Below, piece by piece: positions 8,718-53,360 of a stretch of 64,000 bases of DNA. The notes under the pieces are model-generated. The model was not told the origin of the DNA. It worked only from the letters and a program-made list of their open reading frames with translations, and searched no databases. The number at the start of each line of letters is the position of its first letter. Position 1 is the first letter of the stretch. This DNA is from Candidatus Babeliales bacterium (GTDB lineage Bacteria; Babelota; Babeliae; Babelales; RVW-14). Made by a program: the position numbers and the translations under genes. Where the stretch lies: the NCBI GenBank assembly GCA_019749895.1, contig JAIEPG010000005.1, positions 73,371-137,370 of the forward strand, written 5' to 3'.

Positions 8718-8764
8718 TGAACAATTGGGAAAACTTTTTTGGGAACCATTTTGGGGGAATTTTC

Positions 8765-9691: not shown

Positions 9692-9766
9692 TTGGTCCTG
9701 ATACGCTACCTCATTGTCCCTGCGGCCCAATAATGGTTGCATAAATAATTTTGCTGCAAAAAGTTT

Positions 9767-9799
9767 GAGGGGCACCGTTTCTGGTGCCCCTCTTTTTTT
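9767..9799. terminator. Bidirectional rho-independent terminator between convergent ankyrin genes
   Basis: gaggggcacc-gttt-c-tggtgcccctc stem-loop followed by T7. The flank on the other side is A-rich. Confidence 0.75.
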
Positions 9800-9807
9800 A
9801 TAACGAT

Positions 9808-10986: not shown

Positions 10987-11061
10987 AACACACTCCCTCG
11001 TTCTATTTTTTGACCAAAGCTACTTTTGCCAACAAGAGTAGCAAACTGAAAATAAAAAAGA

Positions 11062-11080
11062 GAAGAAGAAGAAGAAGAAG
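11062..11080. repeat. (GAA/AAG)6 trinucleotide microsatellite in a divergent intergenic region
   Basis: Six perfect AAG units were read at 11063-11080, about 76 nt upstream of the minus-strand start at 10986. Confidence 0.9.
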
Positions 11081-11149
11081 TGTTTCCCAAGCGTTTTTAC
11101 AGCACAAGCAACCACGCTTTTAGCCTCCCTGGCTACTTTTTTAAATTAT

Positions 11150-11178
11150 TTACAAGCTGAACAGGCACTGGCTATACT
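11150..11178 (+). promoter_or_regulatory. Candidate sigma70-type promoter TTACAA-N17-TATACT for the ankyrin-RING gene
   Basis: The hexamers and spacer were read directly. It lies 44 nt upstream of the ATG at 11222. Confidence 0.4.
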
Positions 11179-11221
11179 CATAATAAGATAAGATAATTAT
11201 TAAATCGCGAAAGGTTTCTTA

Positions 11222-23588: not shown

Positions 23589-23606
23589 ACGCACCTCTTA
23601 GCATTT

Positions 23607-31431: not shown

Positions 31432-32088
31432 ATGTCTGAGATCGTACTGCCTGCAGCAAATCCAGAACCAAAGGTTAGCCACGTTGACAACCATGAACTA
31501 GCTATGACGTTTATTGAAAAGCTTCTTGAAAATCATGATAAACTTAACCAACTCTACGAAGAAACTTTTTATCTTCCCCCGTTGCATTATGCCACTATTC
31601 AAGGCAAGCAAGATCTGGTAATACAACTTCTTGAACAAGGCGCCAATGCAAACCTACCTGATTCTTACGGCCGAACTCCTTTAATGTGGGCCGCCATGTA
31701 CGCTGAGCATCATATCATCAATCTTCTTATTTTAGATTACCAAGCAGATATGTCGGCAGTTGATAAAATGGGTCTTAGTGCCTTACATTATGCAGCACAT
31801 ACCTTGTCCTTGATAAAGATTCATCAACGATGTGAAACTATTGGTTTATTGATATCATATGGAATTTTAGAAAAAATTTCGCAATCAACACCCCTCTTGC
31901 CCTTTTTAGAAAAAAATAGAGTTCCTCAAGAAATAATAGAGTTCATAAACAACCCTACGCTCCTCATACCCAAAAAGCCCCGCAAATCGAGCAGCTTTAA
32001 GAATCTCAAAAACCTCCTACCAAAGCCACCATTTGGTGGACATAAACGCTCTAAGAGTGGTGCTTTTATCGATGTCGAACCAAAATAG
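31432..32088 (+). CDS. Ankyrin-repeat protein with a basic C-terminal tail
   Basis: PPLHYATIQGKQDLVIQLLEQGANANL, RTPLMWAA and LSALHYAA motifs. There is no clear RBS, so the start is uncertain. Confidence 0.7.
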   Translation: MSEIVLPAANPEPKVSHVDNHELAMTFIEKLLENHDKLNQLYEETFYLPPLHYATIQGKQDLVIQLLEQGANANLPDSYGRTPLMWAAMYAEHHIINLLILDYQADMSAVDKMGLSALHYAAHTLSLIKIHQRCETIGLLISYGILEKISQSTPLLPFLEKNRVPQEIIEFINNPTLLIPKKPRKSSSFKNLKNLLPKPPFGGHKRSKSGAFIDVEPK

Positions 32089-37566: not shown

Positions 37567-38947
37567 AAACTTTCCCGTAACGTGCCACACCAACAACGTA
37601 GGCCCTGGCTCAACCTTTGTTGCCATTAACGGCAAAACTACCAACGGTAATACTTTTATTGAGCAAGCGCTTGAGCAAGGTGCCACCGCCCTAGTGGTTG
37701 AACATCCATTTAAAGCCTGCGAATTTTTAACTAAGCATCACAATACAACTATTACCATTTCTATGGTTCCCAACGCGCGCAAAGCGCTGGCAACGATGAG
37801 CAGTAATGCGCTTGGCAACCCTGCTTCTCAGCTAAAAATTATTGGCGTTACTGGCACCAAAGGTAAAACAACAACAACGTATCTGATTGAACACATGCTG
37901 CGCACCAGCGGCTACAAAACCGCCATGCTTTCCGGCGTTGTTAACAAAATTTTAGATCGCGAAGAGCCAAGCACACTGACCACACCAGAAAGCGATTACC
38001 TGCATATGTTTTTTGCCGAATGCGTAAAACAAGGTGTTGACTATGTGGTTATGGAAGTTTCTTCTCACGCGCTCAGCCTGTTCCGCACACACGGCATTAC
38101 GTTTGAAGCAGCAGCATTTACCAACTTAGCAATTGAGCACATGGATTTTCACCAAACGCTTGAAGATTATTTTGCAGCAAAAATGATGCTCTTTGAGCAG
38201 ATAAAACCAAACGGCACTATTGTTATTAACGCCGATAATGAGTGGGGCATAAAAGCCCTTGAACAACTCGCTGGTAAAAATCCTGTTACAAGCTCACTAC
38301 AAAACGTCACTATTGCGAACAACAACCTTGATGGGCTTGCAGTTACGCTTGATGGAATCACGCTGGCAACAACCATGCTTTTTGGCACGTTTAACGCACA
38401 AAATATTTGCCAAGCGTACACGCTGTGCAAACAGTTGGGCGTCAACACGCAAACCATGCAACGAGCACTAGCAAGCTTTCCTGGCGTACCAGGCAGACTG
38501 CAAGGACATAAACTTGCCAACGGCGCTTACGCGTTTGTTGATTATGCACATAACGGTTCGTCATTTGAAGCAGTGCTGAGCACGCTACGCCCACTCACCA
38601 AGCATTTGATTGTGGTGTTTGGCTGTGGCGGCAACCGCGACAAAACGCGCCGCACACTGCTGGGCCAACGCGCAGCTGAGTATGCCGACAGCATAATTTT
38701 GACTGACGATAACCCTCGCTTTGAAAAAAGCGAAGCAATTATTAACGATATTGTACAAGCAATTCCTGTTGAAAAACGTGATCGCGTTGTGTGTGAGCCA
38801 AACAGACACTTAGCACTGGCCCGTGCAGCCGCTCAAGCAACACCAGAAAGCATTATTGCTATTTTGGGCAAGGGGCATGAAACTTCATATATCGTTGAAG
38901 GAACAAATTATTCCTTCAACGATTTTAAAGAAATCCAGCAATTCTAA
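37553..38947 (+). CDS. murE: UDP-N-acetylmuramoyl-L-alanyl-D-glutamate--2,6-diaminopimelate ligase
   Basis: GVTGTKGKTTT P-loop, the DNPR motif (LTDDNPRFE), and a Mur ligase three-domain length. It overlaps the preceding gene by 14 nt. Confidence 0.85.
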   Translation: MLVPKNFPVTCHTNNVGPGSTFVAINGKTTNGNTFIEQALEQGATALVVEHPFKACEFLTKHHNTTITISMVPNARKALATMSSNALGNPASQLKIIGVTGTKGKTTTTYLIEHMLRTSGYKTAMLSGVVNKILDREEPSTLTTPESDYLHMFFAECVKQGVDYVVMEVSSHALSLFRTHGITFEAAAFTNLAIEHMDFHQTLEDYFAAKMMLFEQIKPNGTIVINADNEWGIKALEQLAGKNPVTSSLQNVTIANNNLDGLAVTLDGITLATTMLFGTFNAQNICQAYTLCKQLGVNTQTMQRALASFPGVPGRLQGHKLANGAYAFVDYAHNGSSFEAVLSTLRPLTKHLIVVFGCGGNRDKTRRTLLGQRAAEYADSIILTDDNPRFEKSEAIINDIVQAIPVEKRDRVVCEPNRHLALARAAAQATPESIIAILGKGHETSYIVEGTNYSFNDFKEIQQF

Positions 38948-38952
38948 AAATG

Positions 38953-40989
38953 CTAACTTGTTGAATCGTAAAAAAGCTGGCCAGCCAAGTTAACGGTAGC
39001 ACCGCTCAAAACGTAGGCATCCAAATCGAAACTTGAACCAAGAGATGAATTACCAAGCGTAAGACCATTGGTCAGTGCTTGACTAGCTGATTCTGTGGTA
39101 TAAGCAACATCAAAAACTAATATTTCATTTGGTGAAGATGCTACTCCTGCCAAAAGTTTTTTACCGTCAGCAGAAAAACGAAGATCTGTTACGTTCACAA
39201 GACCAACATTGTACGTGTAAACCGACGTCAGTGATGTACCATTAAATTCAAAAATTCTGATATTGTTGACACCTCCACCTTGAGCCCCTCCAACAGCAAC
39301 ATAACGACCATCTGGAGACCAATCTACCGCGTAGTAAAGGGTGGTATTAAACGAATTAGATGCACTAGCAATCAAATTTTGTGTAAAACCGTTAAAAGAA
39401 TACACCATTAATGCAGGATCTGAACCAGCCGAGCTATTATAGGTTGTTATAGCAAAAAATAACCCATCAGAACGCCAAGCAACCTGACTAGATATTGCAA
39501 ATGCAGCAGAAAAAGTTACGGAATGACTACTTTGCTGCGTAAGAGATGTCCCATCAAACAAGTAAGTCTTGCTTGTTGTTGTTGGCGAAAAGCTACCGTA
39601 ATAAAGAGCTAAATATCTACCATTTGGACTCCACATAAGGGCTCTTCCTGCACTAAAGTTCCCTGCTCCTGGGGCCACTGTTGCAATTGCTGTAAGACTA
39701 TAACCACTAAACGAATAAACCGTCAAAGAACCAGTATTCATACCAGCAAGATAGTTACCACAAGGACTCCACGCTACTATGAATTGTCCACCAACCGAAG
39801 CAATTGGAGTCAAGCTTGCACCATCAAACCTGAAAACAGTTATGCCCGTGGCCCCAATAACACCAACAGCAATAAACCGACCAGTTGGATCCCAGTCAAC
39901 TGAGTAAACACCGGTACCACCCAGAACATAAGAAGCAACTAATTCTAATCCAGTAGCAGTAACTTTCAAAACACGAAAATTTGCATTAAGATAAGAAATA
40001 GTTGCAACATAACGAGCATTTGGGCTAAAAACACATTCAGCAAAACTTGATCCACTCGTAAGCAAAGAACTTGTCTCTGTTAAACTCAAAAATTTCGTTG
40101 TAGGTTTTGTCTCGATATCAATTTTATTGTCTAACCACAAGCGACCCTTGGTCAACCGCATGCCGGTAAATGTTGTTTGCAATGTGGTTCCGGAACCTTT
40201 GAGATAGATCCCCGAAGATTTGTCGTTCAGTTGCAATAAATCTTTATCGGTGGTGCTTGGATAGTAGTACAACGTAGTGCCAGGGTCGAAAGTCAACAGT
40301 GATTTTGGCGCAACATAACTTTGCATAACTGATTGATAAATAAATTGTGAAGTTCCGGTAAAGCGCACGTCATTAAAACAGAACATGCGCCCCGTTCTAA
40401 AAGCAAAATCATCTGCCAACGCCAGCTCAACATTATCAAGTGTCACATGCCCCTTTTGGTCAAAACAACGAATGATGGGAATATTGGAGCTGTTGCGCGT
40501 TGTTTGAATAGTCATATTTTTGAGCGTCAACGAAACATCTGAAGCAAGCAACAATTGTGCGTGCGCACCCAGCGTTAACGTATGGCCATGACCATCAATA
40601 ATTGTGTTGTCAATAAATTCTACAATCGTATCAGTTGGCAGACTCAATGAACCCCCAAGATGTATTGTGTTGCCACGCCCGTAAATTTTACCACTGCTTG
40701 ACCAGGTCAATTTTGAATCAAGATACAAATCTCCACGCAGATCTAACGAGCCTGTGGTACGCAAATCTATTGAACCAGAAACGGTATAAAACGTGTCTAG
40801 CGCTGCCGACTGGCCGGCTAAAATAGTAAAACCGTTATTTAACCGCACATAACCTTTTGCCGTGTTAAAGTTACGAAATACATAATGCTTGTCTTGATAC
40901 ACAATGCTTGCAGTACCATTCAAACTTGTTGCTTGCGCGAGCTCTGGACACAACGCAAGTAACACTAATAATTTTACAACTTGCTTCAT
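38953..40989 (-). CDS. Secreted modular protein, array paralog 1 of 5 (signal peptide, conserved N-module, 7-bladed propeller, conserved C-module)
   Basis: MKQVVKLLVLLALCPELAQA|TSLNGT. The N-module is shared with the other four copies. There are seven WSPxGxY-type blades. The C-terminus is ...ALTNGLTLGNSSLGSSFDLDAYVLSGATVNLAGQLFYDSTS. Confidence 0.85.
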   Translation of the reverse strand: MKQVVKLLVLLALCPELAQATSLNGTASIVYQDKHYVFRNFNTAKGYVRLNNGFTILAGQSAALDTFYTVSGSIDLRTTGSLDLRGDLYLDSKLTWSSSGKIYGRGNTIHLGGSLSLPTDTIVEFIDNTIIDGHGHTLTLGAHAQLLLASDVSLTLKNMTIQTTRNSSNIPIIRCFDQKGHVTLDNVELALADDFAFRTGRMFCFNDVRFTGTSQFIYQSVMQSYVAPKSLLTFDPGTTLYYYPSTTDKDLLQLNDKSSGIYLKGSGTTLQTTFTGMRLTKGRLWLDNKIDIETKPTTKFLSLTETSSLLTSGSSFAECVFSPNARYVATISYLNANFRVLKVTATGLELVASYVLGGTGVYSVDWDPTGRFIAVGVIGATGITVFRFDGASLTPIASVGGQFIVAWSPCGNYLAGMNTGSLTVYSFSGYSLTAIATVAPGAGNFSAGRALMWSPNGRYLALYYGSFSPTTTSKTYLFDGTSLTQQSSHSVTFSAAFAISSQVAWRSDGLFFAITTYNSSAGSDPALMVYSFNGFTQNLIASASNSFNTTLYYAVDWSPDGRYVAVGGAQGGGVNNIRIFEFNGTSLTSVYTYNVGLVNVTDLRFSADGKKLLAGVASSPNEILVFDVAYTTESASQALTNGLTLGNSSLGSSFDLDAYVLSGATVNLAGQLFYDSTS

Positions 40990-41041
40990 TACTACTCCCT
41001 TCTTTTACTTCTCACTCTTTTTTATAAATTTTTTTTATTTC

Positions 41042-43132
41042 CTAGCTTGTTGAATCGTAAAACAACTGGCCCGCCAAGTTAACGGTGGCACCGCTCAAAA
41101 CGTAGGCATCCAAATCGAATGAAGAGCCGGAAGCTGAGTTACCCAACGTAAGCCCGTTAGTAAGAGCTTGTGTTGTCGTGTCAAAGCGATAAGACACTGA
41201 ATAAACTTCAATTTGTGCATGGCCACCGGCAGGACCTTGACCACAAAGCGCTAGATATTTGCCATCTTTTGACCAACTTGTGTCTGCATGTCCATTGGAA
41301 TTACTACCATAATTGGAACTCGTTACCAGCGTTAAAGAAGAACCATTAAACTGAAAAATTTGAAACTCATTACTATTAGTCGGTGCTCTACCGCTCAGAG
41401 AGATGTATCTGCCGGTTGAATCCCACTGCACACTGTTAGGTCCAATTTGTAATCCATAATCTTTACTATCAACAAGCGTGCACGTTGTTCCATTAAAACT
41501 ATAAACTTGCAGTTCATTGCCATTAGTTGGAGAATTGCCCCCGACTGCCAAAAAATTACCATCCGGACTAAATTTCACTGCTAGAACAGAACTTGACCCA
41601 TACGTAACACTGGTAACTAATGTTAATGATGATCCATTGAATGAATAAACTTTAAATGTGCCATCACCTACACCAACAGCAACAAGGGCACTATTAATTG
41701 GATGCCATGAGAAACTAAACGGTGGACTCGATGGTCCAGCTATATTAAGACCGGTAACAAACGTAAGACTTGCAGCGAGAGGAGTCCCACTAAAACGATA
41801 CACTTGCAATCCATCACCAGTCGGCACCGGTGTTGGATTATAGGTACCAACAATAATATATTGCTGATCAAAAGACCATGCTAACCCAAACGCATTACCA
41901 ATATCAACCACCGAGCTTAATGAAACAGCAGCAAGTAACGTCAAACTTGTCCCATTAAAACTATAAACCTTAACGTTATTAGGATAACCACCAACTACCG
42001 CAAGATACTGACCGTCGATGCTCCATCGCGTGCAAAAAGCTTTGTTTTCAGTACCTCCAAAATTAGCGGTTGCTACCGAAGTAAGAGCTGCCCCGTCAAA
42101 GCGATAAACCTGTACCGAAGTAGCTCCGCCCCCTTCTCCAACTACCGCCACAAAGCGACCATTCGGAGAAAAATCGATTGAATAGGCACCAGTTGCCCCG
42201 TAACTTGCTGTGTCCACTTGGGTAATACTCGTTAATGTTGTTGCCGCGCGGGTACTCACCGTAACTTTATTGTCAAACCACAACCGACCTTTGCTCAAAC
42301 GCATACCGGTATGCGTTGTTTGGAGCGTTGTTGCAGCACCTTTAAAATAAACTCCTGCTGACTTGTCTTGCAGCTGTAATAAACTTTTTGCTGTTGTGCT
42401 TGGATAATAATACAATGTAGTACCAGGATCGAAGGTCAAAAGTGACTGTGAAGCAACATAGCTTTGCATCACCGATTGATATATAAAACACGAAGTGCCA
42501 GTCACAATAACATCGTTATTAAAGAACATGCGACCATTACGAAATGGAAAGTCATCTGCCAATGCCAACTCAACATCGTCCAACGTCACATGACCTTTTT
42601 GATCAAAACAGCGAATGATAGGAATGTTTGAACTATTGCGCGTTGTTTGAATGGTCATATTTTTGAGCGTCAACGAAACGTCTGAAGCAAGCAACAACTG
42701 CGCATGCGCCCCAAGCGTTAACGTGTGCCCATCACCATCAACAATGGTATCATCAATAAATTGTAAAACCGTGTCCGTTGGCAAACTCAATGAACCCCCA
42801 AGATGTATTGTATTGCCACGTCCATAAATTTTGCCGCTGCTTGACCACGTCACATGTGCATCTAAAAATAGATCGCTGCGCAAATCAAGCGAACCGGTGG
42901 TGCGCAAATCAATAGCACCAGAAACTGTTACAAAGGTATCTAAACCTGCCGACTGGCCAGCCAAAATGGTAAAGCCGTTGTTTAAACGTACATAGCCAGT
43001 TGCCGTATTAAAATTACGAAAAACATAATGCTTGTCTTGATACACAATGCTTGCGGTACCATTCAAACTTGTTGCACGCGCCAGCACTGGGCAGAACGCA
43101 AGCACCAATAATAATTTTAGAACGCGCTTCAT
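41042..43132 (-). CDS. Secreted modular protein, array paralog 2 of 5
   Basis: Same N- and C-modules. The propeller sequence is unrelated in detail to the other copies but again has seven blades (FSPNGRF, WSIDGQY, WSFDQQY, WHPINSA, FSPDGNF, WDSTGRY, WSKDGKY). Confidence 0.85.
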   Translation of the reverse strand: MKRVLKLLLVLAFCPVLARATSLNGTASIVYQDKHYVFRNFNTATGYVRLNNGFTILAGQSAGLDTFVTVSGAIDLRTTGSLDLRSDLFLDAHVTWSSSGKIYGRGNTIHLGGSLSLPTDTVLQFIDDTIVDGDGHTLTLGAHAQLLLASDVSLTLKNMTIQTTRNSSNIPIIRCFDQKGHVTLDDVELALADDFPFRNGRMFFNNDVIVTGTSCFIYQSVMQSYVASQSLLTFDPGTTLYYYPSTTAKSLLQLQDKSAGVYFKGAATTLQTTHTGMRLSKGRLWFDNKVTVSTRAATTLTSITQVDTASYGATGAYSIDFSPNGRFVAVVGEGGGATSVQVYRFDGAALTSVATANFGGTENKAFCTRWSIDGQYLAVVGGYPNNVKVYSFNGTSLTLLAAVSLSSVVDIGNAFGLAWSFDQQYIIVGTYNPTPVPTGDGLQVYRFSGTPLAASLTFVTGLNIAGPSSPPFSFSWHPINSALVAVGVGDGTFKVYSFNGSSLTLVTSVTYGSSSVLAVKFSPDGNFLAVGGNSPTNGNELQVYSFNGTTCTLVDSKDYGLQIGPNSVQWDSTGRYISLSGRAPTNSNEFQIFQFNGSSLTLVTSSNYGSNSNGHADTSWSKDGKYLALCGQGPAGGHAQIEVYSVSYRFDTTTQALTNGLTLGNSASGSSFDLDAYVLSGATVNLAGQLFYDSTS

Positions 43133-43187
43133 TACTACTCCCTTTTTCTGCTTTCTACTTCTCTTTTTTTATTCTCTAAATTTTTTT

Positions 43188-45248
43188 CTAACTTGTTGAG
43201 TCGTACATCAGCTGTCCTGCCAAATTAATGGTGGCATCACTCAGAACGTAGGTATCCAAATCAAACGAAGAACCAGCAGTTGAATTGCCAAGCACAAGAC
43301 CGTTTGTCAATGCTTGTGTAGTTGTGTCAAAACGATACGAAACGGTCCAGACTTCTATCTCGTCGTGGCCACCGTCAGGGCCCTCACCGCCAATAGCTAT
43401 ATACTTTCCATCAGAGCTCCATGCAACACCGTTGATTGACGTTCCAAAATTATAACTGGCAAGTTCAGTTAAAGTTCCTGGCCGCGTAAACTGATAAAGT
43501 TTAAGCTCACTACCATTGGTCGGAGTTGTTCCTCCACCAACCAAATATTGCCCATCAGGGCTCCAACGGGCCTCAAGAAAACTATCATTATTGCCGCTAT
43601 AAATAATGCTTGCAACGAGAGAAAAGGAACCCCCAGGATTAACAGAAAGTATGTTCAATCGTGAATCACCACCACCAATTTGATTGATCGTTTCAGAAAC
43701 ATACAAACCATCTTGAGTAAATTCTGCAGAACGACCAGATTGTCCAGCGTTAGTCGCTTGAATCAATGTTAATATTGATCCGTTAAAACTATAAGTACGC
43801 GTTTCAGTACTTGGCCCAGCACTCCCGCTAGAACAAAAAAAACGCGCACTTGGATGCCACGAAAGACCTCTAACATTACCTTGCCCAATTCCATTCCCAT
43901 CAATAAATGTTAATTTTTGACCATCAAATCTATAGATTTGCAACTGTTCAATTGTTGCGTCATCAGTAGATCCAAACAAAACATATTCTCCTGAAGGGCT
44001 CCACGCAATTCCTTTAACATTATCCGTTGCAGTAAGATCAGTTGCAGCAATGGTAGTAAGCGTTGTACCATTAAAACTGTAAATTCTCACATCGTTAGTT
44101 GCATCACCAACTGCACCTACAAATCTTCCACTTGGATGCCAGCGCACACGCCACACTTCAGCACCACCGCCAGTCCAATTATCACCGGTAACGTACGTCA
44201 GCGTTGAGCCGTTGAAACGGTAAACTTGAAATTCCATACCATTTGTTGGTCCAAAACCACCCACCGCTAAATACCTACCATCGGGGCTCCAATCTACCGA
44301 TTGTACCCGCGTACCATAACTTGCCGTGGTGAGTTGCACAAGGCCATTGGCAACCGTATTTGCCCGTGTAGTCAATGTTACTTTGTTATCCAACCAGAAG
44401 CGGCCCTTGCTCAAACGCATCCCGGTATGCGTTGTTTGCAACGTTGTTGCAGAACCGTTCAAATAAATACCTGCCGATTTGTCTTGCAGCTGAATCAAGT
44501 CTTTATCTGTTGAACTTGGGTAGTAATAAAGCGTAGTACCAGGATCGAACGTTAACAGCGATTGTGGCATCACATAACTTTGCATCCACGATTGATAAAT
44601 AAAACATGAAGTACCGGTCATTACAACATCATTACCAAAAAACATACGACCAGTTCGAAACGGAAAGTCATCTGCCAAAGCCAACTCAACATTGTCCAAC
44701 GTCACATGCCCTGTTTGGTCAAAGCAGCGAATAATAGGGATGTGTGCACTGTTGCGCGTTGTTTGAATGGTCATATTTTTGAGCGTCAACGAAACATCTG
44801 AAGCAAGCAACAATTGTGCATGCGCACCCAGCGTTAAGGTGTTGCCATGACCGTCAATAACGGTATCGTCAATAAATTGTACAATCGTATCAGTTGGCAA
44901 GCTCAAAGAACCGCCAAGGTGTATTGCATTGCCACGCCCATAAATTTTGCCGCTACTGGACCACGTTGCATGAGCGTCTAAAAATAAATCACCACGCAAA
45001 TCGAGCGAACCGGTGGTGCGCAAATCAATGGCACCCGAAACGGTTACAAAGGTATCTAAACCGGCAGACTGACCCGCCAAAATAGTAAAACCGTTATTTA
45101 AACGCACATAGCCTTTTGCCGTATTAAAATTACGAAAGACATAATGTTTGTCTTGGTACACAATGCTTGCCGTGCCGTTTAAACTTGTTGCCTGAATGAA
45201 TGTTGGGCACAGCACTAGCACCGCTAATAATTTTATAAGTCGCTTCAT
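43188..45248 (-). CDS. Secreted modular protein, array paralog 3 of 5
   Basis: Same architecture. Blades 1-2 and 6-7 are nearly shared with paralogs 4 and 5. Confidence 0.85.
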   Translation of the reverse strand: MKRLIKLLAVLVLCPTFIQATSLNGTASIVYQDKHYVFRNFNTAKGYVRLNNGFTILAGQSAGLDTFVTVSGAIDLRTTGSLDLRGDLFLDAHATWSSSGKIYGRGNAIHLGGSLSLPTDTIVQFIDDTVIDGHGNTLTLGAHAQLLLASDVSLTLKNMTIQTTRNSAHIPIIRCFDQTGHVTLDNVELALADDFPFRTGRMFFGNDVVMTGTSCFIYQSWMQSYVMPQSLLTFDPGTTLYYYPSSTDKDLIQLQDKSAGIYLNGSATTLQTTHTGMRLSKGRFWLDNKVTLTTRANTVANGLVQLTTASYGTRVQSVDWSPDGRYLAVGGFGPTNGMEFQVYRFNGSTLTYVTGDNWTGGGAEVWRVRWHPSGRFVGAVGDATNDVRIYSFNGTTLTTIAATDLTATDNVKGIAWSPSGEYVLFGSTDDATIEQLQIYRFDGQKLTFIDGNGIGQGNVRGLSWHPSARFFCSSGSAGPSTETRTYSFNGSILTLIQATNAGQSGRSAEFTQDGLYVSETINQIGGGDSRLNILSVNPGGSFSLVASIIYSGNNDSFLEARWSPDGQYLVGGGTTPTNGSELKLYQFTRPGTLTELASYNFGTSINGVAWSSDGKYIAIGGEGPDGGHDEIEVWTVSYRFDTTTQALTNGLVLGNSTAGSSFDLDTYVLSDATINLAGQLMYDSTS

Positions 45249-45304
45249 TACTACTCCCTTTTTCTACCTTCTACTTTCTCTTTTTTTATTCTCTAAATTT
45301 TTTT

Positions 45305-47368
45305 CTAACTTGTTGAGTCGTAAAACAACTGCCCAGCCAAGTTGACGGTTGCATCACTCAGCACATACGTATCTAAATCAAACGAAGAGCCAGCAGTTGA
45401 ACTGCCAAGCACAAGACCGTTTGTCAATGCTTGTGTAGTTGTGTCAAAACGATACGAAATGGTCCATACTTCAATTTCGTCATGCCCTCCGTCAGGCCCT
45501 TCACCGCCAATAGCTACATATTTTCCATCAGAGCTCCATGCAACACCATTAATTGCGGTTCCATAGTTGTAACTCGCAACTTCTGTTAATGTTGCTGGCC
45601 GCGTAAACTGATAAAGTTTAAGCTCGCTGCCATTACTTGGCGAGTTTCCACCACCAACCAAATACTGTCCATCAGGACTCCAACGAACTTCAAGAAAATT
45701 ATCATTGCCACCGCTGTAAACAATATGCTCCACAACACTAAATGAGGCTCCAGTAAATGAACACATAGTCAACCTTGAATCTCCACCACCTATTGTGTTC
45801 ATTGCTATCGCAAAATAAAGCCCATCCTGACTAAATTCAGCAGAACGACCTGATTGCCCGGCATTTGAAGCTTGAACAACAGAAATAGACGTTCCATTAA
45901 AACTATACACACGCGTTTCAATACTCAGCGCTCCCGCATTGCCCGCAACACAAAAAAACTTGCCACTGGGATGCCACGAAAGACCGCGAGCTGAAGCTGA
46001 AGTCACATTCATATCCGCACTATCAACAAATGTTAACGAGTTACCATCAAATCGATAAACTCGAATTTCGTCAGACGCATTCTCGTTATCAATACCAAAC
46101 AAAATAAATTCTCCTGATGGGCTCCAAGCAAGACCACGAACATCGCCAGTTGTAATATTTATTGCATCAAGCGTTATTAACGTTGAGCCATCAAAGCTAT
46201 AAATTCTCACGTCATTGGTTGCATCACCAACAGCAGCCACAAAACGACCATTTGGGTGCCAACGAACACGCCACACTTCAGCACCCCCACCAGTCCAATT
46301 ATCACCAGTAACGTACGTCAGCGTTGAACCGTTAAAGCGATAGACCTGAAATTCGAAAGTATTGGTTGGCCCAGTACCACCAACGGCCAAATATCTACCA
46401 TCTGGACTCCAATCTACCGAACGCACACGCGTGCCATAACTTGCCGTAGTGAGTTGCACAAATCCATTAGCAACCGTATTTGCCCGTGTAGTCAATGTTA
46501 CTTTGTTATCCAACCACAATCTACCTTTACTCAAACGCATGCCAGTATGCGTTGTTTGAAGCGTTGTTGCAGCACCTTTAAAATAAACTCCTGCTGACTT
46601 GTCTTGCAGCTGAACCAAATCTTTGTCCGTCGAGCTTGGGTAGTAATACAGCGTAGTGCCTGGATCGAACGTTAAAAGCGAATGTGGCACAACATAACTT
46701 TGCATAACCGATTGATAAACAAAACATGAAGTGCCGGTCACCACCACATCGTTTTCAAAAAACATACGGCCAGTTCGAAACGGAAAGTCATCTGCCAAAG
46801 CCAACTCAACATTGTCCAACGTTACATGCCCTGTTTGGTCAAAGCAGCGAATAATAGGAATATGTACGCTGTTGCGCGTTGTTTTGAGCGTCATATTTTT
46901 GAGCGTCAACGAAACATCTGAAGCAAGCAACAATTGTGCATGCGCACCAAGCGTTAACGTATGGCCATGGCCGTCAATAACGGTATCATCAATAAATTGT
47001 ACAATCGTATCGGTTGGCAAACTCAAAGAGCCACTAAGATGTATGGCATTGCCACGGCCATAAATTTTGCCGCTACTGGACCACGTTACATGAGCGTCTA
47101 AAAATAAATCACCACGCAAATCGAGCGAACCAGTGGTGCGCAAATCTATAGCACCAGAAACGGTTACAAACGTGTCCAGCCCTGCAGACTGGCCAGCCAA
47201 AATAGTAAAACCATTGTTCAAACGCACATAGCCTTTTGCCGTGTCAAAATTACGAAAAACATAATGCTTGTCTTGGTACACAATGCTTGCCGTACCATTC
47301 AAACTTGTTGCACCTGCGAGCGTTGGGCACAGCGCAAGCACCGCTAATAATTTTACAAAACGGTTCAT
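45305..47368 (-). CDS. Secreted modular protein, array paralog 4 of 5
   Basis: Same architecture. By my count the N-module is aa 1-295 (nt about 46484-47368), the propeller is aa about 305-638, and the C-module is aa 639-687. Confidence 0.85.
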   Translation of the reverse strand: MNRFVKLLAVLALCPTLAGATSLNGTASIVYQDKHYVFRNFDTAKGYVRLNNGFTILAGQSAGLDTFVTVSGAIDLRTTGSLDLRGDLFLDAHVTWSSSGKIYGRGNAIHLSGSLSLPTDTIVQFIDDTVIDGHGHTLTLGAHAQLLLASDVSLTLKNMTLKTTRNSVHIPIIRCFDQTGHVTLDNVELALADDFPFRTGRMFFENDVVVTGTSCFVYQSVMQSYVVPHSLLTFDPGTTLYYYPSSTDKDLVQLQDKSAGVYFKGAATTLQTTHTGMRLSKGRLWLDNKVTLTTRANTVANGFVQLTTASYGTRVRSVDWSPDGRYLAVGGTGPTNTFEFQVYRFNGSTLTYVTGDNWTGGGAEVWRVRWHPNGRFVAAVGDATNDVRIYSFDGSTLITLDAINITTGDVRGLAWSPSGEFILFGIDNENASDEIRVYRFDGNSLTFVDSADMNVTSASARGLSWHPSGKFFCVAGNAGALSIETRVYSFNGTSISVVQASNAGQSGRSAEFSQDGLYFAIAMNTIGGGDSRLTMCSFTGASFSVVEHIVYSGGNDNFLEVRWSPDGQYLVGGGNSPSNGSELKLYQFTRPATLTEVASYNYGTAINGVAWSSDGKYVAIGGEGPDGGHDEIEVWTISYRFDTTTQALTNGLVLGSSTAGSSFDLDTYVLSDATVNLAGQLFYDSTS

Positions 47369-47423
47369 TACTACTCCTTTTTTCTACTTTCTACTTTCTC
47401 TTTTTTTATTTTCTAAATTTTTT

Positions 47424-49505
47424 TTAACTTGTTGAGTCGTAAAACAACTGCCCAGCCAAGTTGAGGGTTGCACCACTCAAAACGTAGGTATCCAAATCAA
47501 ACGAAGCGCCAGCAGTTGAGTTGCCAAGCGTAAGACCGTTGGTGAGTGCTTGGGTTGATGTGTCGAAGCGATACGAGACCGTCCACACTTCAAGCTCATC
47601 GTGCCCACCACCAGCACCGTTACCACCAATCGCTATATACTTGCCATCACGGCTCCACGCAACACCGTTGATTGCAGTCCCATAGTTGTAGCTTGCAACT
47701 TGGGCAATGGTGCTTGGCCGAACAAACTGGTAAAGCTTCAGCTCATTACCATCATCGGGACCCGTCCCTCCACCAACCAAATAGTTGCCATCGGGACTCC
47801 ATCGTATTTCAAAAGTCGATTGGTCTGCAGAAGAGTTATACGTCGTTGTGTCAACATCCTGAAAACTCCCACCAGGGTTAATTTCTTGTATTTTAAAGCG
47901 ACTCGTCGTATGCCCCGCGTTACTTAAGGCAGTAGCAAAAAACAATCCATCCGGAGTAAATTCTAACGAACGACCATCTGCACCAAGCCCACTATCTTGA
48001 ATAAGCGTAAGCGTACTGCCATCAAAAAGATACGTCCTCGTTTCTTGTAAATTATTTGCCGTACCACACAAGCCAAGGTACATACCATCAGGATGCCACC
48101 CCAAACCAGTCCCTCGTGCAAACGAAGCACCTAAATCAATACCATAAATAAAAGTCAGGCTTGCACCATCAAAATGGTAGAGTTGTAGCTCTGTCGATGG
48201 CAAATCATCATCAATCCCACATACCAGATAATGACCCGTTGGATGCCAAGCAAGCCCCTTCACTTCACCGGCTGACGTGAGATCAGTCACATCAAGCGTT
48301 ATTAAGGTTGTTCCATCAAAACTGTAAACCCTGACATCGTTGGTTGCATCACCAACAGCTGCCACAAAGCGACCGCTTGGGTGCCAACGCACGCGCCACA
48401 CTTCTGCACCACCACCAGTCCAATTATCACCGGTAACATACGTCAGCGTCGAGCCATTGAAACGGTAAATTTGAAATTCCATACCATTTGTTGGGCCTGT
48501 ACCACCAACGGCCAAATACCTACCATCTGGGCTCCAATCTACCGAACGCACACGCGTGCCATAACTTGCCGTAGTGAGTTGCACAAATCCATTCGCAACG
48601 GTGCTTGCTCGTGTACTGACCGTTACTTTGTTATCCAACCAGAAGCGACCCTTACTCAAGCGCATGCCGGTATGCGTTGTTTGCAACGTCGTTGAACTGC
48701 CGTTCAAATAAATTCCTGCCGATTTGTCTTGCTGCTGAATCAAACTTTTTGTTGTTGAACTTGGGTAGTAATACAGCGTAGTGCCTGGATCGAAGGTCAA
48801 AAGCGAATGTGGCAGAACATAACTTTGCATGACCGATTGATATACAAAACATGAAGTGCCGGTCACCACCACATCGTTTTCAAAAAACATACGACCAGTT
48901 CGAAACGGAAAGTCATCTGCCAAAGCCAACTCAACATTGTCCAACGTCACATGACCTTTTTGATCAAAGCAGCGAATAATAGGAATATGAGAACTGTTGC
49001 GCGTTGTTTTGAGCGTCATATTTTTAAGCGTTAATGAAACGTCTGAAGCAAGCAAGAGCTGCGCATGCGCCCCAAGCGTTAACGTGTGCCCATGGCCGTT
49101 AATAACGGTATCGTCAATAAATTGTACAATCGTATCGGTTGGCAAACTCAAAGAGCCACTAAGATGTATGGCATTGCCACGGCCATAAATTTTGCCGCTA
49201 CTGGACCACGTTGCATGAGCGTCTAAAAATAAATCACCACGCAAATCCAACGAACCAGTAGTACGCAAATCGATAGCGCCAGAAACGGTTACAAACGTAT
49301 CAAGCCCTGCAGACTGGCCAGCCAAAATAGTAAAGCCATTGTTCAAACGTACAAATCCTTTTGCCGTATCAAAATTACGAAAAACGTAATGCTTGTCTTG
49401 ATAAACAGGAGTCACCGTACCGTTTAAACTTGTTGCTTGAACAAGCCAGGAACAGCTTAATAAAACCAACAAAAAAAAGATAAAAAGCAGTACTTTCTTA
49501 CTCAT
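47424..49505 (-). CDS. Secreted modular protein, array paralog 5 of 5 (first in transcription order)
   Basis: MSKKVLLFIFFLLVLLSCSWLVQA|TSLNGT and the same architecture. An AAAGGAGAGAG RBS precedes the ATG. Confidence 0.85.
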   Translation of the reverse strand: MSKKVLLFIFFLLVLLSCSWLVQATSLNGTVTPVYQDKHYVFRNFDTAKGFVRLNNGFTILAGQSAGLDTFVTVSGAIDLRTTGSLDLRGDLFLDAHATWSSSGKIYGRGNAIHLSGSLSLPTDTIVQFIDDTVINGHGHTLTLGAHAQLLLASDVSLTLKNMTLKTTRNSSHIPIIRCFDQKGHVTLDNVELALADDFPFRTGRMFFENDVVVTGTSCFVYQSVMQSYVLPHSLLTFDPGTTLYYYPSSTTKSLIQQQDKSAGIYLNGSSTTLQTTHTGMRLSKGRFWLDNKVTVSTRASTVANGFVQLTTASYGTRVRSVDWSPDGRYLAVGGTGPTNGMEFQIYRFNGSTLTYVTGDNWTGGGAEVWRVRWHPSGRFVAAVGDATNDVRVYSFDGTTLITLDVTDLTSAGEVKGLAWHPTGHYLVCGIDDDLPSTELQLYHFDGASLTFIYGIDLGASFARGTGLGWHPDGMYLGLCGTANNLQETRTYLFDGSTLTLIQDSGLGADGRSLEFTPDGLFFATALSNAGHTTSRFKIQEINPGGSFQDVDTTTYNSSADQSTFEIRWSPDGNYLVGGGTGPDDGNELKLYQFVRPSTIAQVASYNYGTAINGVAWSRDGKYIAIGGNGAGGGHDELEVWTVSYRFDTSTQALTNGLTLGNSTAGASFDLDTYVLSGATLNLAGQLFYDSTS

Positions 49506-49563: not shown

Positions 49564-51216
49564 TCAAACAATCAGAAATTTTTGTAGCTGATAGTCCCAC
49601 GAAACCAAAACGGGATTATCTTTTTTCAACAATGCTTCAATAACAATCGAAATAGCCGTTGGTTCTCCTCTACTATTTTTTTCAAGAACAGTTAAAGAGC
49701 TCACTGAATTTTGTGTTGAAATATTTTTCGGAAAATAAAGATGTTCTGGATCGCAAGAACGCAGCTCAACCATCCCATTTTTTAGCTCAACCGTCATATG
49801 ATGCGGCTTTATCTCATAAAACGGCTCTGATTTAAAAGCAAAGGTATTAATGGTATAAAACACGGACATGCGCTTGGCACTACCACCCAACAGCCACAAG
49901 GCTTGGGCATTGCTACTACCAAACCAGTGCATGGGCAAGCCAACAAACCAAACCGCTCGATCATGAATTTTTTGATCAGCAACCAAGCCTTTAAAGGCTG
50001 TGATGATCGTGTTCAAAACACGCTCTTTGGTGCGCTGTCGGTAAAAAAAACTGGTAGCATTTACTGCTAAAAGAATAAATAAAAAAGGGTACAAGCCCCA
50101 CGCGGGTACAGAAAAACGAGATGTGTAATAAGAAACTGCATACAAAATAATACCAAACAAAAACGGCAAACCAACGTACAAATAGCGCGGTTGATAGTAC
50201 AAAAGCAAAGCCGGCCAAGTAAAAAGAATTATACTGCCAACAAGAAAGCACAGCTCTTTGTACTGCCTGCGCGCAAAAAACGGCCACACTAAACAACTGA
50301 GTAGTAACACAACCAAACTACCCTTGAGCAAACGATTGCCACTGGGAATAAGACCAACGTACAGATAATCGCAGACATAGCTGATCCAATCTCCTAAACG
50401 CTCTTTTTGACGTGCAACAAACACATCAAACGTTTGCTTAAAATTCCCACCCAAAACCTTTATCTGCAACGGAAACAGCCACAAGCGCACTACCAAATAA
50501 AAAAAAGCACCTGCCCAATAACCAAGCGACACACGTAGTGCCCGGCCAGCATACTGCCACAGAGCCCCACCCTGCGTAAACGAACAGTAAAACATGGTCG
50601 CCGCAAAGGCCCAGACGGGAAAAACAATTAATGTTTCTTTTGCAAAAATGCTCAGTGTCATAATGCTGCACGAGAGCAAATACCACAGACATTTTTTGCT
50701 GTCTAAATAGCGTTTTAAACAATACGCAGCGCCCAACAAATACAACACATCAACAATATAAATTTGACAGGTAAAAACGCCAATCCAATGCTCAAGGCTG
50801 GGGTGCAGCGCAAAAAACATGGCACCAAAAAAGGCCAGTGGTAAGCCAAAAAAAGTAAAAAATATGTTAAATAGCACAACCGAAATTAATGCGTGAAGCG
50901 TAATAACACAGATCAGCAAAGCGTACGGATTGATACCAAAAAACCAGCTTTCTAAACCAAAGAGCACAAATTGCATGGGCCGGTACAAAACCGAAGCAAA
51001 CGTTAACGGTATTGCCGGATAATTTGAAGGATTAAAAGCATGACCAATATCGTGTGGCGCAAAAAATGAAAAGAGATCAGAAAGTTTGTGTAGTTGAGCA
51101 TGCAACAAAAAACCACAATCGTCATTAATAAACCCCCAATTAAAAAATGGTAAGGCAAGAATTGCCAAAATGCTCACAAAAATAAACACCGAAAAAAAGA
51201 GTCTTTTTTTCTCCAT
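49564..51216 (-). CDS. GT-C-fold-like polytopic membrane protein (TMTC/PMT-like), paralog family member, immediately upstream of the array
   Basis: WGFINDDCGFLLHA follows TM1. LYRPMQFVLFGLE and LHALISVVLFNIFF are shared with the proteins at 60517 and 62178. The start at 51216 lies 8 nt after GAAAGG. Confidence 0.65.
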   Translation of the reverse strand: MEKKRLFFSVFIFVSILAILALPFFNWGFINDDCGFLLHAQLHKLSDLFSFFAPHDIGHAFNPSNYPAIPLTFASVLYRPMQFVLFGLESWFFGINPYALLICVITLHALISVVLFNIFFTFFGLPLAFFGAMFFALHPSLEHWIGVFTCQIYIVDVLYLLGAAYCLKRYLDSKKCLWYLLSCSIMTLSIFAKETLIVFPVWAFAATMFYCSFTQGGALWQYAGRALRVSLGYWAGAFFYLVVRLWLFPLQIKVLGGNFKQTFDVFVARQKERLGDWISYVCDYLYVGLIPSGNRLLKGSLVVLLLSCLVWPFFARRQYKELCFLVGSIILFTWPALLLYYQPRYLYVGLPFLFGIILYAVSYYTSRFSVPAWGLYPFLFILLAVNATSFFYRQRTKERVLNTIITAFKGLVADQKIHDRAVWFVGLPMHWFGSSNAQALWLLGGSAKRMSVFYTINTFAFKSEPFYEIKPHHMTVELKNGMVELRSCDPEHLYFPKNISTQNSVSSLTVLEKNSRGEPTAISIVIEALLKKDNPVLVSWDYQLQKFLIV

Positions 51217-51296
51217 ACCCATCACCTTTCTCTCGATTGGATCTTTACTCCTTTGGTTAATGCTATAGTATTTAGGCAGAGAAAGAAAGGAGTAGC

Positions 51297-53360
51297 GTGC
51301 TGAAAAATTTTCATAAATTTAAGATCCAATACCTCTTAATAATTGGAATTTTTACTCTTAAAATTATTGCGCTCATTCTCTTTTCTTCAGACTACATGGA
51401 GCAACTTTTTGTCCCATTTATTGAGCACTTTGTACAAAGCTTTGGTAACCCCTGGCAATATTTTTTTGACTGTCAGTCGGCCGTAGAGTTTCCTTACCAC
51501 CCGCTCATGCTTTATCTTTTATCGCTGTGCTACCTACCACTCAAACTTTTGGGTATTAACAGGCAAGCACTTGCAACCATTGCGCTCAAACTACCAACGC
51601 TGTGTGCTGACGTAAGCATTACCTACCTGCTACTTAAAACGTTTCCAACGCGAACTCAAGAAGTAGCTCTTTTTTATTACGCATCGCCCATAATTTTTTA
51701 CGCAGCCTACCTGCATTCACAACTCGACCTGATACCAACTGCTATCCTGTTTTTGAGTATTTACTTGCTCAAACAAGACAAAGTTTTTTTTGCATCGCTC
51801 ATACTGGGCTGCGCCCTGAGCACGAAGCTACACGTTATTGCAGCGGCACCAATCATGGCTATTTATGTACTCAAAAATTATTCGTTTAAAAAAATGATTA
51901 CGTTTAGCGCTACTGTGCTGACCGTTTATTGTTTTTTTGTAGCTCCATTTATTTTGAGCACCGGCTACTATCATTTGGTGCTCACCCACCCCAAACAAAT
52001 GCTGCTGTTTGATGTCTTTGCACAATTTGGGACCCTCAAGCTCTACCTGCCGGTGTGCGCCCTGCTTACGCTGTATGGCCGATTTTTTACGTACGAAAAA
52101 ATTAACAACGATCTCATGGACGCATTTTTAGGCATCGTCTTTTCGTTTTTTGTGCTACTCATTATACCCGCGCCAGCGTGGTATATGTGGATGCTGCCAT
52201 TTTTAAGCACGGTTTTAATTAAACAATCAGACAACAACCACAACATGCTCTGGACCTATGCAGGCTTGAACAGCTTGTATTTCATATTTTTTATCTTTTT
52301 TTATCAATCCACCTGTAACGATTTATTGTTTTTAGGCACCCCCGTCAACTTTAAAATATCGCATCAAACGTTATGCAACATCACCTTTACGCTGCTTGAG
52401 GCAACGCTGCTCTTGCTGATTTATTGCATGTACAAATTTGGCGTGCGCAGCAATGCCATTTATAAAAAAACACACAGCCTGATTATTGGGATTGGTGGCG
52501 ACAGCGGTGCGGGCAAAAGTACGTTTATGCACGACTTACACGTTATTTTGGGCGCCAAAGCAACCATGCTTGAAGGCGATGGCGACCACCGCTGGGAGCG
52601 AAACGACCAGCACTGGCAAGAATTTACACACTTGGACCCAAAAGCCAACTACCTACACCGGCAAGCCGAAAACCTTTTAAGTTTAAAAATGGGTCAGGCA
52701 ATTAAACGTACTGATTACAACCACACCAGCGGCACCTTTGACCCAGCACGCTTAATTAAACCAACTGATTTTATTTGCTTGAGCGGCCTGCATCCACTCT
52801 ACCTGCCCAAAATGCGTAAACTAATCGACGTCAAAATTTATTTAGACCCGGCCCCAGATATTCGCGCGCATTGGAAAATTGTACGTGATATGCACAAGCG
52901 CGGATACTCAAAAGAAAAAGTAATCGAACAACTCAACAAACGCGCCATTGACGGCCAAAAATATATTGAACCGCAAAAAAATTTTAGCGATTTAATTGTT
53001 CATTATTTCACCGACCAACCATTTGAAATTGGCAACCCACACGAACATCCACACATCAAACTCAAAATCACGCTCGATTCAAGCGTACGCCTTGATCAAT
53101 TAATTCAAGAACTTACCAAAGCAAACATCAACTTTGTGTGGGATTACGCAGCAGATTTAAGATCGCAATACCTAATATTATCACAACCAATTGCGCACAC
53201 AGTGTTACCAACAATCGCTCAAAACATTTTAGTAAATATTGAAGAGTTAACCGTACAAAACAACTTGTGGGCGCAGGGTTATCGCGGTTTTTTGCAATTG
53301 ATAACTCTGCTCATTATGAGCGAAAAAATGAGAGAAAAGGATATTTATGAACGAGCTTAA
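51297..53360 (+). CDS. Fusion protein: N-terminal polytopic membrane domain (about 380 aa) plus a C-terminal PRK/uridine-kinase-family P-loop kinase domain
   Basis: The GTG start is preceded by GAAAGGAG. Hydrophobic segments run through about aa 380. Then come IIGIGGDSGAGKSTF (P-loop at about nt 52488-52523), ...GDGDHRWERND..., ...LSGLHPLY..., ...DVKIYLDP....IRAHWKIVRDM.KRGYS, typical of the phosphoribulokinase/uridine kinase family. Confidence 0.7.
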   Translation: MLKNFHKFKIQYLLIIGIFTLKIIALILFSSDYMEQLFVPFIEHFVQSFGNPWQYFFDCQSAVEFPYHPLMLYLLSLCYLPLKLLGINRQALATIALKLPTLCADVSITYLLLKTFPTRTQEVALFYYASPIIFYAAYLHSQLDLIPTAILFLSIYLLKQDKVFFASLILGCALSTKLHVIAAAPIMAIYVLKNYSFKKMITFSATVLTVYCFFVAPFILSTGYYHLVLTHPKQMLLFDVFAQFGTLKLYLPVCALLTLYGRFFTYEKINNDLMDAFLGIVFSFFVLLIIPAPAWYMWMLPFLSTVLIKQSDNNHNMLWTYAGLNSLYFIFFIFFYQSTCNDLLFLGTPVNFKISHQTLCNITFTLLEATLLLLIYCMYKFGVRSNAIYKKTHSLIIGIGGDSGAGKSTFMHDLHVILGAKATMLEGDGDHRWERNDQHWQEFTHLDPKANYLHRQAENLLSLKMGQAIKRTDYNHTSGTFDPARLIKPTDFICLSGLHPLYLPKMRKLIDVKIYLDPAPDIRAHWKIVRDMHKRGYSKEKVIEQLNKRAIDGQKYIEPQKNFSDLIVHYFTDQPFEIGNPHEHPHIKLKITLDSSVRLDQLIQELTKANINFVWDYAADLRSQYLILSQPIAHTVLPTIAQNILVNIEELTVQNNLWAQGYRGFLQLITLLIMSEKMREKDIYERA

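Follow-up and report, generated by a model that had tools for sequence, protein, structure and literature searches.

The 64,000-nucleotide (nt) stretch of contig JAIEPG010000005.1 from a Candidatus Babeliales bacterium that was analyzed here (the window) carries on its minus strand a tandem array of five paralogous genes, g1 to g5, each coding for a predicted right-handed beta-helix domain into which a seven-bladed WD40 propeller is inserted. Taking the findings on this locus together, we propose, with a probability of roughly 0.6, that the array is best explained as a co-transcribed set of Sec-exported proteins that present varied binding propellers on one scaffold, probably in interaction with the host. 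The Dependentiae (TM6) are widespread obligate parasites of protists. Their host specificity has been called “an open question” (Yeoh 2016, PMC4776705).

The array and the parts of its fourth gene, on which the structural analysis was made, are listed below with amino acid (aa) positions. The five genes were delimited from the list of open reading frames (ORFs), an alignment, and profile hidden Markov models (HMMs).

38953..49505, minus strand: five-paralog tandem array, from the ORF list and a five-way alignment; transcription order g5, g4, g3, g2, g1
38953-40989, minus strand: g1, 678 aa, the most divergent paralog
41042-43132, minus strand: g2, 696 aa, a paralog with a distinct propeller type
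43188-45248, minus strand: g3, 686 aa, a paralog
45305-47368, minus strand: g4, 687 aa, the copy modeled with AlphaFold2 (AF2)
47424-49505, minus strand: g5, 693 aa, with predicted signal peptide, beta-helix N-module, seven-blade propeller, and tail
47309..47368, minus strand: g4 signal-peptide-like segment, aa 1-20, MNRFVKLLAVLALCPTLAGA, from n-region, h-region, and AxA features
46478..47308, minus strand: g4 N-module, main body of the predicted right-handed beta-helix, aa 21-297, from AF2 of the module alone and Foldseek
45446..46477, minus strand: g4 inserted seven-bladed WD40 propeller, aa 298-641, from the AF2 model, Pfam WD40, and Foldseek
45308..45445, minus strand: g4 C-terminal tail, aa 642-687, which would complete the beta-helix domain, from natural variants and the AF2 model

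A predicted beta-helix domain with an inserted propeller

The five proteins can be aligned over their full length in the five-way alignment, and their ORFs of 678-696 aa on one strand, with stop-to-stop distances of 2089, 2146, 2117, and 2119 nt from g1 to g5, are reproduced from the ORF list exactly as a first, sequence-only reading of this DNA had given them. Between copies, the N-module (aa 21-297) is 83-93% identical, the propeller 28-74%, and the last ~46-49 aa 74-94%. HMMs of the N-module and of the tail match exactly these five ORFs and no other ORF of the window; since the N-module HMM finds each copy at E = 1e-122 to 1e-126, the similarity of the copies lies far above chance.

The N-module had been likened to a beta-solenoid, and the prediction of its structure supports this view. 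Modeled alone by AF2, it reaches a mean predicted local distance difference test score (pLDDT) of 93.6 and a predicted template modeling score (pTM) of 0.90, contains short strands only, and has as Foldseek neighbors, at weak scores, right-handed beta-helices throughout: TibA (4q1q, the best match), Ag43, RbmB, PL6 lyases, and PfbA, and further polygalacturonases, pectate lyases, phage tail fibers, and phage depolymerases. A viral structure library returned just weak, generic beta-helix matches. In agreement with the initial failure to assign either the N- or the C-terminal module to a named family, Pfam, NCBIfam, and PDB sequence searches gave no above-threshold match for them. PF20585 (Pectate_lyase_5) matches the N-module below threshold in 12 of 28 members (best E = 3e-4), scoring 14-15 bits on the window copies against a gathering cut-off of 24.3 and covering ~80 of the 277 residues; PF13229 (Beta_helix) matches a single one of the 28, also below threshold (E = 0.069). 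No NCBIfam model matches the N-module, and its profile finds nothing significant among PDB sequences.

The center of each protein had been read as a seven-bladed propeller of the PD40/WD40 type, and this reading is upheld by Pfam, by the model, and by structural comparison. The Pfam WD40 model (PF00400, clan Beta_propeller) scores 36.7-62.3 bits, above its gathering cut-off of 27 in all five copies. The AF2 model of full-length g4 (687 aa), built with a 72-sequence family alignment, has a pLDDT of 89.4 and a pTM of 0.86, and the propeller in this predicted structure comprises 28 strands, i.e., seven blades of four strands each, with velcro closure. Searched against the PDB with Foldseek, the g4 model retrieves the seven-bladed WD40 proteins WDR61, G-beta, WDR5, and Ciao1 at E ~1e-13, with target template modeling (TM) scores of up to 0.84 (WDR61, WDR5, and G-beta). 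In the five-way alignment each copy has seven W/F-S-P-D-G-type strands; a loose motif scan recovers seven of them in g1, g3, g4, and g5 and five in g2, where the remaining two are degenerate (WSFDQ and WSKDG). The sevenfold recurrence of this strand therefore stands, but the further claim that each is followed by a Y-x-F-N-G-S-x-L-T continuation does not, blade 7 being without one of its own. Residues 298-309, with which the chain leaves the N-module, form the outer strand (strand D) of blade 7 next to strand 632-641, so the two ends of the propeller are adjacent.

The shared C-terminal block of about 48 aa had been taken for a module of its own, possibly a sorting or anchoring signal that marks a wider cargo family, but the natural variants of the family speak against this. 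We scored 247 retrieved family proteins with the N-module and tail HMMs. In ~120 of them, the N-module is followed by 4-8 recognizable blades and then by the tail. Seven proteins of 321-347 aa (P0163, P0182, P0184, P0217, P0220, P0230, and P0234) consist of a signal peptide, the N-module, and the tail, with no propeller between them; P0223 (338 aa) shares this layout, though its more diverged tail went undetected by the HMM, and the propeller-less short form also occurs as a gene within the nine-gene array of the complete genome CP064957 (L002 5060-6091). At the other end of the range, P0024, P0054, P0065, P0237, and P0239 have propeller regions of double or triple length between the same flanks, those of the first three being double. 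The tail is internal in P0121 and P0122, each with three complete units per polypeptide, in P0020, where a second beta-helix follows it, and in P0132 and P0136. In one further relative, P0167 (398 aa), only one WD40-like blade separates the N-module from the tail; such a blade could not form a propeller alone, and the protein might be a decay product, an assembly artefact, or completed to a propeller in trans.

It is true that the block is strongly conserved and stands at the extreme C-terminus of most members (186 of the 247 retrieved proteins that carry it), as a sorting signal would. However, besides becoming internal in the multi-unit proteins, it lies downstream of the N-module in every case among the retrieved family proteins, no tail-only search having been made, and in proteins that lack a propeller, such as the relatives of ~340 aa, it comes straight after the N-module. 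At E <= 1 it matches none of the known sorting-signal models in NCBIfam (the C-terminal domain of the type IX secretion system, PEP-CTERM, LPXTG, GlyGly-CTERM, and similar), and with a maximum 19-residue hydropathy of < 0.9 it has no hydrophobic anchor. Its family-wide consensus is Q.LSN.I.FGNS..GS.YDL.V.VL.GA.V.L.G.L..D, and in the g4 model it forms three short strands at a pLDDT of ~88-93; the pattern IVFGNS..GS.YDL.V.VL.GA.V.L.G, together with these strands, resembles the rungs of a beta-helix. An independent sorting or anchoring signal that marks a cargo family is thus very improbable. A direct-coupling proof of contact between tail and helix was also sought and given up, as a first run suffered from gap artefacts and the cleaned run is suggestive at most: it shows a weak enrichment of couplings between the tail and the last third of the N-module, at an effective sequence number (Neff) of ~128 and with non-independent pairs.

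Because of the natural fusions of N-module and tail, the internal tails, the absence of any sorting-signal match or hydrophobic segment, and the confidently modeled strands, we conclude that the N-module and the tail are one domain, predicted to be a right-handed beta-helix, and that the propeller is a nested insertion in it, an architecture of which we are highly confident. In the mature protein, the chain would leave the beta-helix after ~277 residues, build a complete seven-bladed propeller, and return, the last 46 residues finishing the helix. The N- and C-terminal modules would form a single scaffold, with the propeller as its exchangeable inserted head.

Exchanged flanks and persistent propellers

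The propeller had been singled out as the variable part of these proteins, and this is so; further, its variation sits on the usual binding face. The D-A and B-C loops make up the conventional top (ligand-binding) face of a propeller. Paralog identity in these loops is 0.29 versus 0.54 in the bottom loops (p = 8e-6). Among g3, g4, and g5, the identity of blades 1 to 7 is 0.93, 0.86, 0.48, 0.43, 0.49, 0.70, and 0.85, with blades 3-5 varying most. The propeller of g1 is 28-32% identical to the other four and has no close match in two related metagenome-assembled genomes (MAGs). That of g5 is 84% identical to the one in P0005, from a related MAG, and that of g4 is 88% identical to the one in P0002, a protein whose tail is 100% identical to the tail of g3 but whose propeller is only 73% identical to that of g3.

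A related MAG (L001) has an array of four copies, c1 to c4, at the syntenic site, which as compared with the five of the window differ in order and include one propeller type that the window lacks. The g2 propeller is 92% identical to that of c1 at the aa level and 80-95% at the nt level, against ~45% nt identity to the other copies, whereas in the N-module c1 does not resemble g2 more than it does the remaining four genes of the window. Synonymous divergence (dS) tells the same story from both sides. Between the orthologous propellers of g2 and c1 it is 0.56, as against 1.28 in the N-module and 1.5 in the tail; between paralogs the order is reversed, with N-module and propeller values of 0.45 and 0.95 for g3 and g4, 0.36 and 1.25 for g4 and g5, and 0.06 and 2.3 for c3 and c4. 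Exact-match tracts lie in the same flanks: in L001, one of 595 nt shared by c3 and c4 (genes at 7788-12049) spans most of the N-module, and one of 197 nt shared by c2 and c3 (genes at 5693-9893) spans the spacer, the signal peptide, and the start of the N-module. The longest exact tract between the paralogs of the window measures 99 nt. On the strength of these dS contrasts and exact-match tracts, we conclude from the sequences that gene conversion or unequal recombination moves the flanks between paralogs, while each propeller type persists as its own lineage. The L001 neighbors that share tracts have propellers only 40-75% identical at the nt level; these conversions are very recent.

The same contrasts and tracts rule out purifying selection alone as the cause of N-module conservation (dN/dS, the ratio of nonsynonymous to synonymous divergence, is 0.08-0.15 there), with gene conversion acting too. 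The scaffold would be kept near-identical among paralogs by purifying selection plus gene conversion through conserved DNA. For the orthologous propellers of g2 and c1, dN/dS is 0.09 overall, 0.16 in the top loops, and 0.03 in the bottom loops, and because of this low value we regard each propeller type as maintained rather than racing. Positive selection on the propeller was considered and rejected, given this ortholog value and a dN/dS of at most ~0.5 for the top loops between paralogs, where dS is saturated.

Transcription, export, and possible functions

The features that bear on the transcription of the array, other than the genes themselves, are the following.

47369..47423, minus strand: conserved spacer g5-g4 with a ribosome-binding site (RBS)
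45249-45304 (g4-g3), 43133-43187 (g3-g2), and 40990-41041 (g2-g1), minus strand: equivalent spacers
38891..38923, minus strand: strong hairpin, candidate end of the transcription unit, 30 nt past the g1 stop and within the 3' end (last codons) of the convergent murE

The four internal spacers (52, 55, 56, and 55 nt) are A-rich, alignable, and conserved, each ends in (G)GGAGTAGTA directly before the ATG, and none contains a terminator-like hairpin. Both the spacer sequences and the terminator scan confirm what had been said of these spacers, and the lack of internal terminator-like sites lends support to the view that the five genes are probably co-transcribed. All five copies are complete ORFs, each with its own start codon, signal-peptide-like N-terminus, and RBS. 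The hairpin beyond g1 is a near-perfect inverted repeat with 16-nt arms that are 94% complementary (RNA fold -26.2 kcal/mol, z = -5.1), and a clean U-run after it is absent. It is possibly a bidirectional terminator of two convergent units, the array and murE.

As had been noted at the outset, all five N-termini look like signal peptides: they have K or R within positions 2-6, a hydrophobic core (maximum 10-residue Kyte-Doolittle mean 2.6-3.7), and AQA, ARA, IQA, AGA, or VQA directly before TSLNGT. A heuristic check of such simple features finds the hallmarks of Sec signal peptidase I substrates (positive n-region, hydrophobic h-region, and small residues at -3/-1) in all five copies. Of 145 family members with the N-module behind the N-terminus, 135 have signal-peptide features as well. 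In the AF2 model of g4 the segment is a low-confidence helix (residues 2-17). Export of the array proteins by Sec is thereby predicted, and they might then be released or surface-exposed via a type II secretion system. In Babela massiliensis a type II system is the only secretion system detected, and secreted WD40/beta-propeller proteins are present (PMC4378268); in Chromulinavorax, 44% of the coding sequences have signal peptides (PMC6561590). No lipobox, transmembrane segment, SLH domain, or sorting signal that might serve as an anchor was found in the array proteins. Lipoprotein anchoring via Cys14, which is invariant among the five copies, was rejected: only g5 (LLSC) loosely fits the lipobox [LVI][ASTVI][GAS]C, and the feature is not family-wide, lipobox-like motifs being found in 10 of 145 members.

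Exported in this way, the proteins would work beyond the cytoplasm, where a shared stalk would present a range of binding specificities. Most likely they would serve, as adhesins or secreted effectors, to make contact with structures of the host. We place this predicted function as an exported binding repertoire at about even odds. Several points weigh against the proposal as a whole. No type II secretion system was seen within the window, such a system being known only from other Dependentiae. The N-module finds only weak structural matches (best E = 2.9e-3, TM <= 0.37), which assign a fold class and no specific family, and the packing of the tail on the beta-helix we infer from natural N-tail fusions, the high pLDDT of the tail, and the weak covariation. 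Further, a beta-helix so highly conserved along its whole length could also point to a role in catalysis or envelope assembly rather than that of a passive stalk, and no positive selection was detected on the propeller, which weakens the idea of an arms race.

A bolder version of the proposal, which we offer tentatively and think rather unlikely, draws on the analogy with the exchangeable receptor-binding proteins of phages. The beta-helix scaffold might be a phylum-wide “display frame” whose conserved flanks let recombination swap entire binding domains, be they one propeller, two, or inserts of another kind. Which protist hosts or host organelles a strain can attach to would then depend on its set of propellers, and the arrays would be determinants of host range in the Dependentiae.

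It is unlikely that the conserved beta-helix is an enzyme, i.e., a secreted polysaccharide lyase or hydrolase of the pectate-lyase, PL6, or GH28 folds with the propeller as a variable substrate-targeting module. The Foldseek neighbors of the N-module include the RbmB lyase, PL6 alginate lyases, polygalacturonases, pectate lyases, and phage depolymerase-like proteins; the module is strongly constrained (dN/dS 0.08), and D65, D75, D132, D185, D194, D207, and D287 are near-invariant family-wide. Pectate lyases are also classical substrates of type II secretion. However, no glycosidase or lyase of Pfam or NCBIfam matches even at E <= 1, nor does any PDB sequence, and among the weak structural matches adhesins rank equal with the enzymes (TibA first, then Ag43 and PfbA). 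The conserved Asp and Asn residues recur once per rung (IDG, LDNV, NDV, DNK), a pattern that resembles a structural ladder and not one active site, and the repetition of the module up to ~20 times in giant proteins is typical of stalks rather than enzymes.

A similarly low probability attaches to the idea that the proteins are not directed at the host but help to build the envelope of the bacterium itself, forming a periplasmic or S-layer-like coat in which the paralogs provide diversity or redundancy. Archaeal S-layer proteins join seven-bladed propellers to beta-helix domains (Jing et al. 2002, as cited in PMC2447325), and Chromulinavorax, without genes for lipopolysaccharide (PMC6561590), would have an atypical outer surface. 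Within the family, the module has multiplied enormously and makes up giant proteins of many modules, the orthologous propellers are under purifying selection, and the nine-gene array of CP064957 lies directly upstream of a Tol-Pal-like cluster. This neighborhood is, however, not conserved, being absent from the window and from the loci L001, L003, and L004. The anchoring motifs are missing as well, and variation on the ligand-binding face of the propeller suits diversified recognition better than a lattice.

We give next to no weight to antigenic or phase variation of the cassette type, with one expressed copy and silent donors in the style of Anaplasma msp2, Neisseria pilE/pilS, or Borrelia vls: the variable center between conserved flanks, the gene-conversion tracts through these flanks, and the differing array content of related genomes would fit, but all five ORFs are complete, each with start codon, signal peptide, and RBS, the orthologous propellers are conserved between genomes (dN/dS 0.09), the conversion tracts lie in the flanks and not in the variable center, and protist hosts are without adaptive immunity.

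Family, genomic surroundings, and known systems

The family is very large and probably restricted to its phylum. An exhaustive profile search with the N-module yields 2,596 clusters at E <= 1e-3 and 1,109 at E <= 1e-30; the clusters are defined at 50% identity, and 2,596 is a lower bound. All taxon-specific names among the close relatives are Candidatus Babeliales or candidate division TM6, a few being labeled “bacterium” alone, and the usual product name, where one is given, is “WD40 repeat domain-containing protein.” Apart from the syntenic array of L001, there are nine copies of mixed architectures in L002 (complete genome CP064957.1, 1-19778), three in L003, and two in L004, and the genes flanking the arrays differ between loci. 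The cluster adjoining the nine-gene array (L002 19899-22718) is Tol-Pal-like, with MotA_ExbB, ExbD, a 260-aa gene without a Pfam match, and a PD40/TolB-like gene. Several relatives depart from the layout seen in the window. The giant proteins P0125 (4562 aa), P0141 (4278 aa), P0124, and P0138 contain up to ~20 N-module matches. P0156, P0172, and others of ~1650 aa have four to six N-modules separated by segments of ~150 aa that are neither propeller nor recognizable tail. About 20 relatives of ~900 aa (P0010, P0021, P0022, and P0030 among them) have an extra N-terminal region of ~240 aa before the N-module, consisting in P0010 of NSNAI-type short repeats, which is absent from the window copies.

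Elsewhere in the window, three tandem paralogs of the TLC ATP/ADP translocase (1536-2870, 3046-4344, and 4451-5776, plus strand; E = 1e-24 to 1e-27) form a second tandem array of paralogs. These translocases are a hallmark of energy parasitism. There are also four ankyrin-repeat proteins and one leucine-rich-repeat (LRR) protein (8717-9691, plus; 9808-10986, minus; 11222-12760, plus; 31432-32088, plus; and 26183-27298, plus), of which the ankyrin protein at 11222-12760 also has a C-terminal RING finger (PF13639, E = 6e-7). On their domain content, the ankyrin and LRR proteins are candidate effectors of eukaryote-like type, and together with the translocases they fit the genome of an obligate intracellular member of the Dependentiae. 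A glycan-related cluster on the minus strand (19277-25049 and 30282-31304) encodes a mannose-1-phosphate guanylyltransferase-like NTP_transferase, a GT-C membrane glycosyltransferase of the PMT_2 family (E = 4.5e-12), an asparagine synthase, a flavin amine oxidoreductase, and an NAD-dependent epimerase/dehydratase, and may serve the glycosylation of proteins or of the envelope. Directly upstream of the array, at a distance of 58 nt and on the same strand, 49564-51225 (minus) encodes a polytopic membrane protein of 553 aa with a weak PMT_2 match (E = 0.009); it was considered as a conserved glycosyltransferase partner of the array and rejected, as it is syntenic in L001 but has no counterpart beside the arrays of L002 and L003. 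The gene beyond it (51297-53360, plus) encodes an N-terminal polytopic membrane region of ~380 aa, without a family match, fused to a phosphoribulokinase/uridine kinase domain (E = 3e-40).

The analysis exposes a very large family of predicted exported proteins that has been hidden under the name “WD40 repeat protein” in public annotation. Its nested architecture and mosaic evolution yield concrete candidates for host-binding proteins with clear construct boundaries, and the locus is a clean natural example of the insertion of a whole domain into a beta-helix, with intermediates of 0, 1, 7, and ~14 blades. Should the proteins prove to be ordinary envelope components, the value would lie mainly in the better annotation of a poorly known phylum. 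We regard the array as a solid and well-defined lead for studies of host interaction in the Dependentiae, one that implies no unprecedented mechanism.

Several known systems invite comparison. As is predicted for the array proteins, the adhesins of the autotransporter type (TibA and Ag43) and the chlamydial polymorphic membrane proteins (Pmp) are Sec-exported and built on a right-handed beta-helix, TibA (4q1q) being the best structural neighbor of the N-module and Ag43 also being found. They form multigene, partly tandem families that mediate host attachment in obligate intracellular bacteria. The array proteins are nevertheless neither autotransporters nor Pmps, given the lack of a barrel and of GGA[ILV] motifs: in place of the C-terminal beta-barrel translocator of those proteins they have 46 aa after the propeller, and they give no autotransporter match in Pfam; of the motifs repeated in Pmps, the copies have no GGA[ILV] and 1-5 FxxN, the latter at chance level. 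Unlike the array proteins, autotransporters and Pmps are not known to have a WD40 propeller inserted in their helix, and the structural similarity is weak (TM <= 0.37). PF20585, named a “putative pectate lyase-like adhesive domain,” has the beta-helix fold class in common with the N-module and is the sole family model that touches it; by Pfam's own threshold the N-module is not a member.

In archaeal S-layer proteins, presumably, the domains follow one another serially rather than being nested. As cited in PMC2447325 (Jing 2002, Structure 10:1453), they are exported to the cell surface, combine a seven-bladed propeller with a beta-helix, and occur in multi-member families, features found or proposed in the array proteins too. 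They differ in having a YVTN-type propeller and PKD domains, whereas the array proteins are bacterial, with WD40 blades and no PKD domain, and no sequence relationship between the two was detected. From the same phylum as the array, WD40/beta-propeller proteins with signal peptides and a proposed action on the host have been reported in the Dependentiae (Pagnier 2015, PMC4378268; Yeoh 2016, PMC4776705), but these reports describe the repeat class only, and no scaffold, insertion, tail, tandem array, or mosaic evolution. Our literature searches for an earlier description returned just generic mentions of WD40 or beta-propeller proteins in TM6 genomes.

The manner of evolution has its own parallels. 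In Anaplasma msp2/p44 and Neisseria pilS, recombination likewise proceeds through conserved flanks around diverse centers. Systems of this type have one expression site and silent cassettes, the donors being promoterless or truncated, whereas the array consists of complete genes, and what varies in it is an entire folded domain, itself conserved from strain to strain. The domain types themselves are ordinary; what is new is an undescribed family, with a beta-helix module that has no Pfam or NCBIfam model, in which these domains are joined in an unusual nested architecture.

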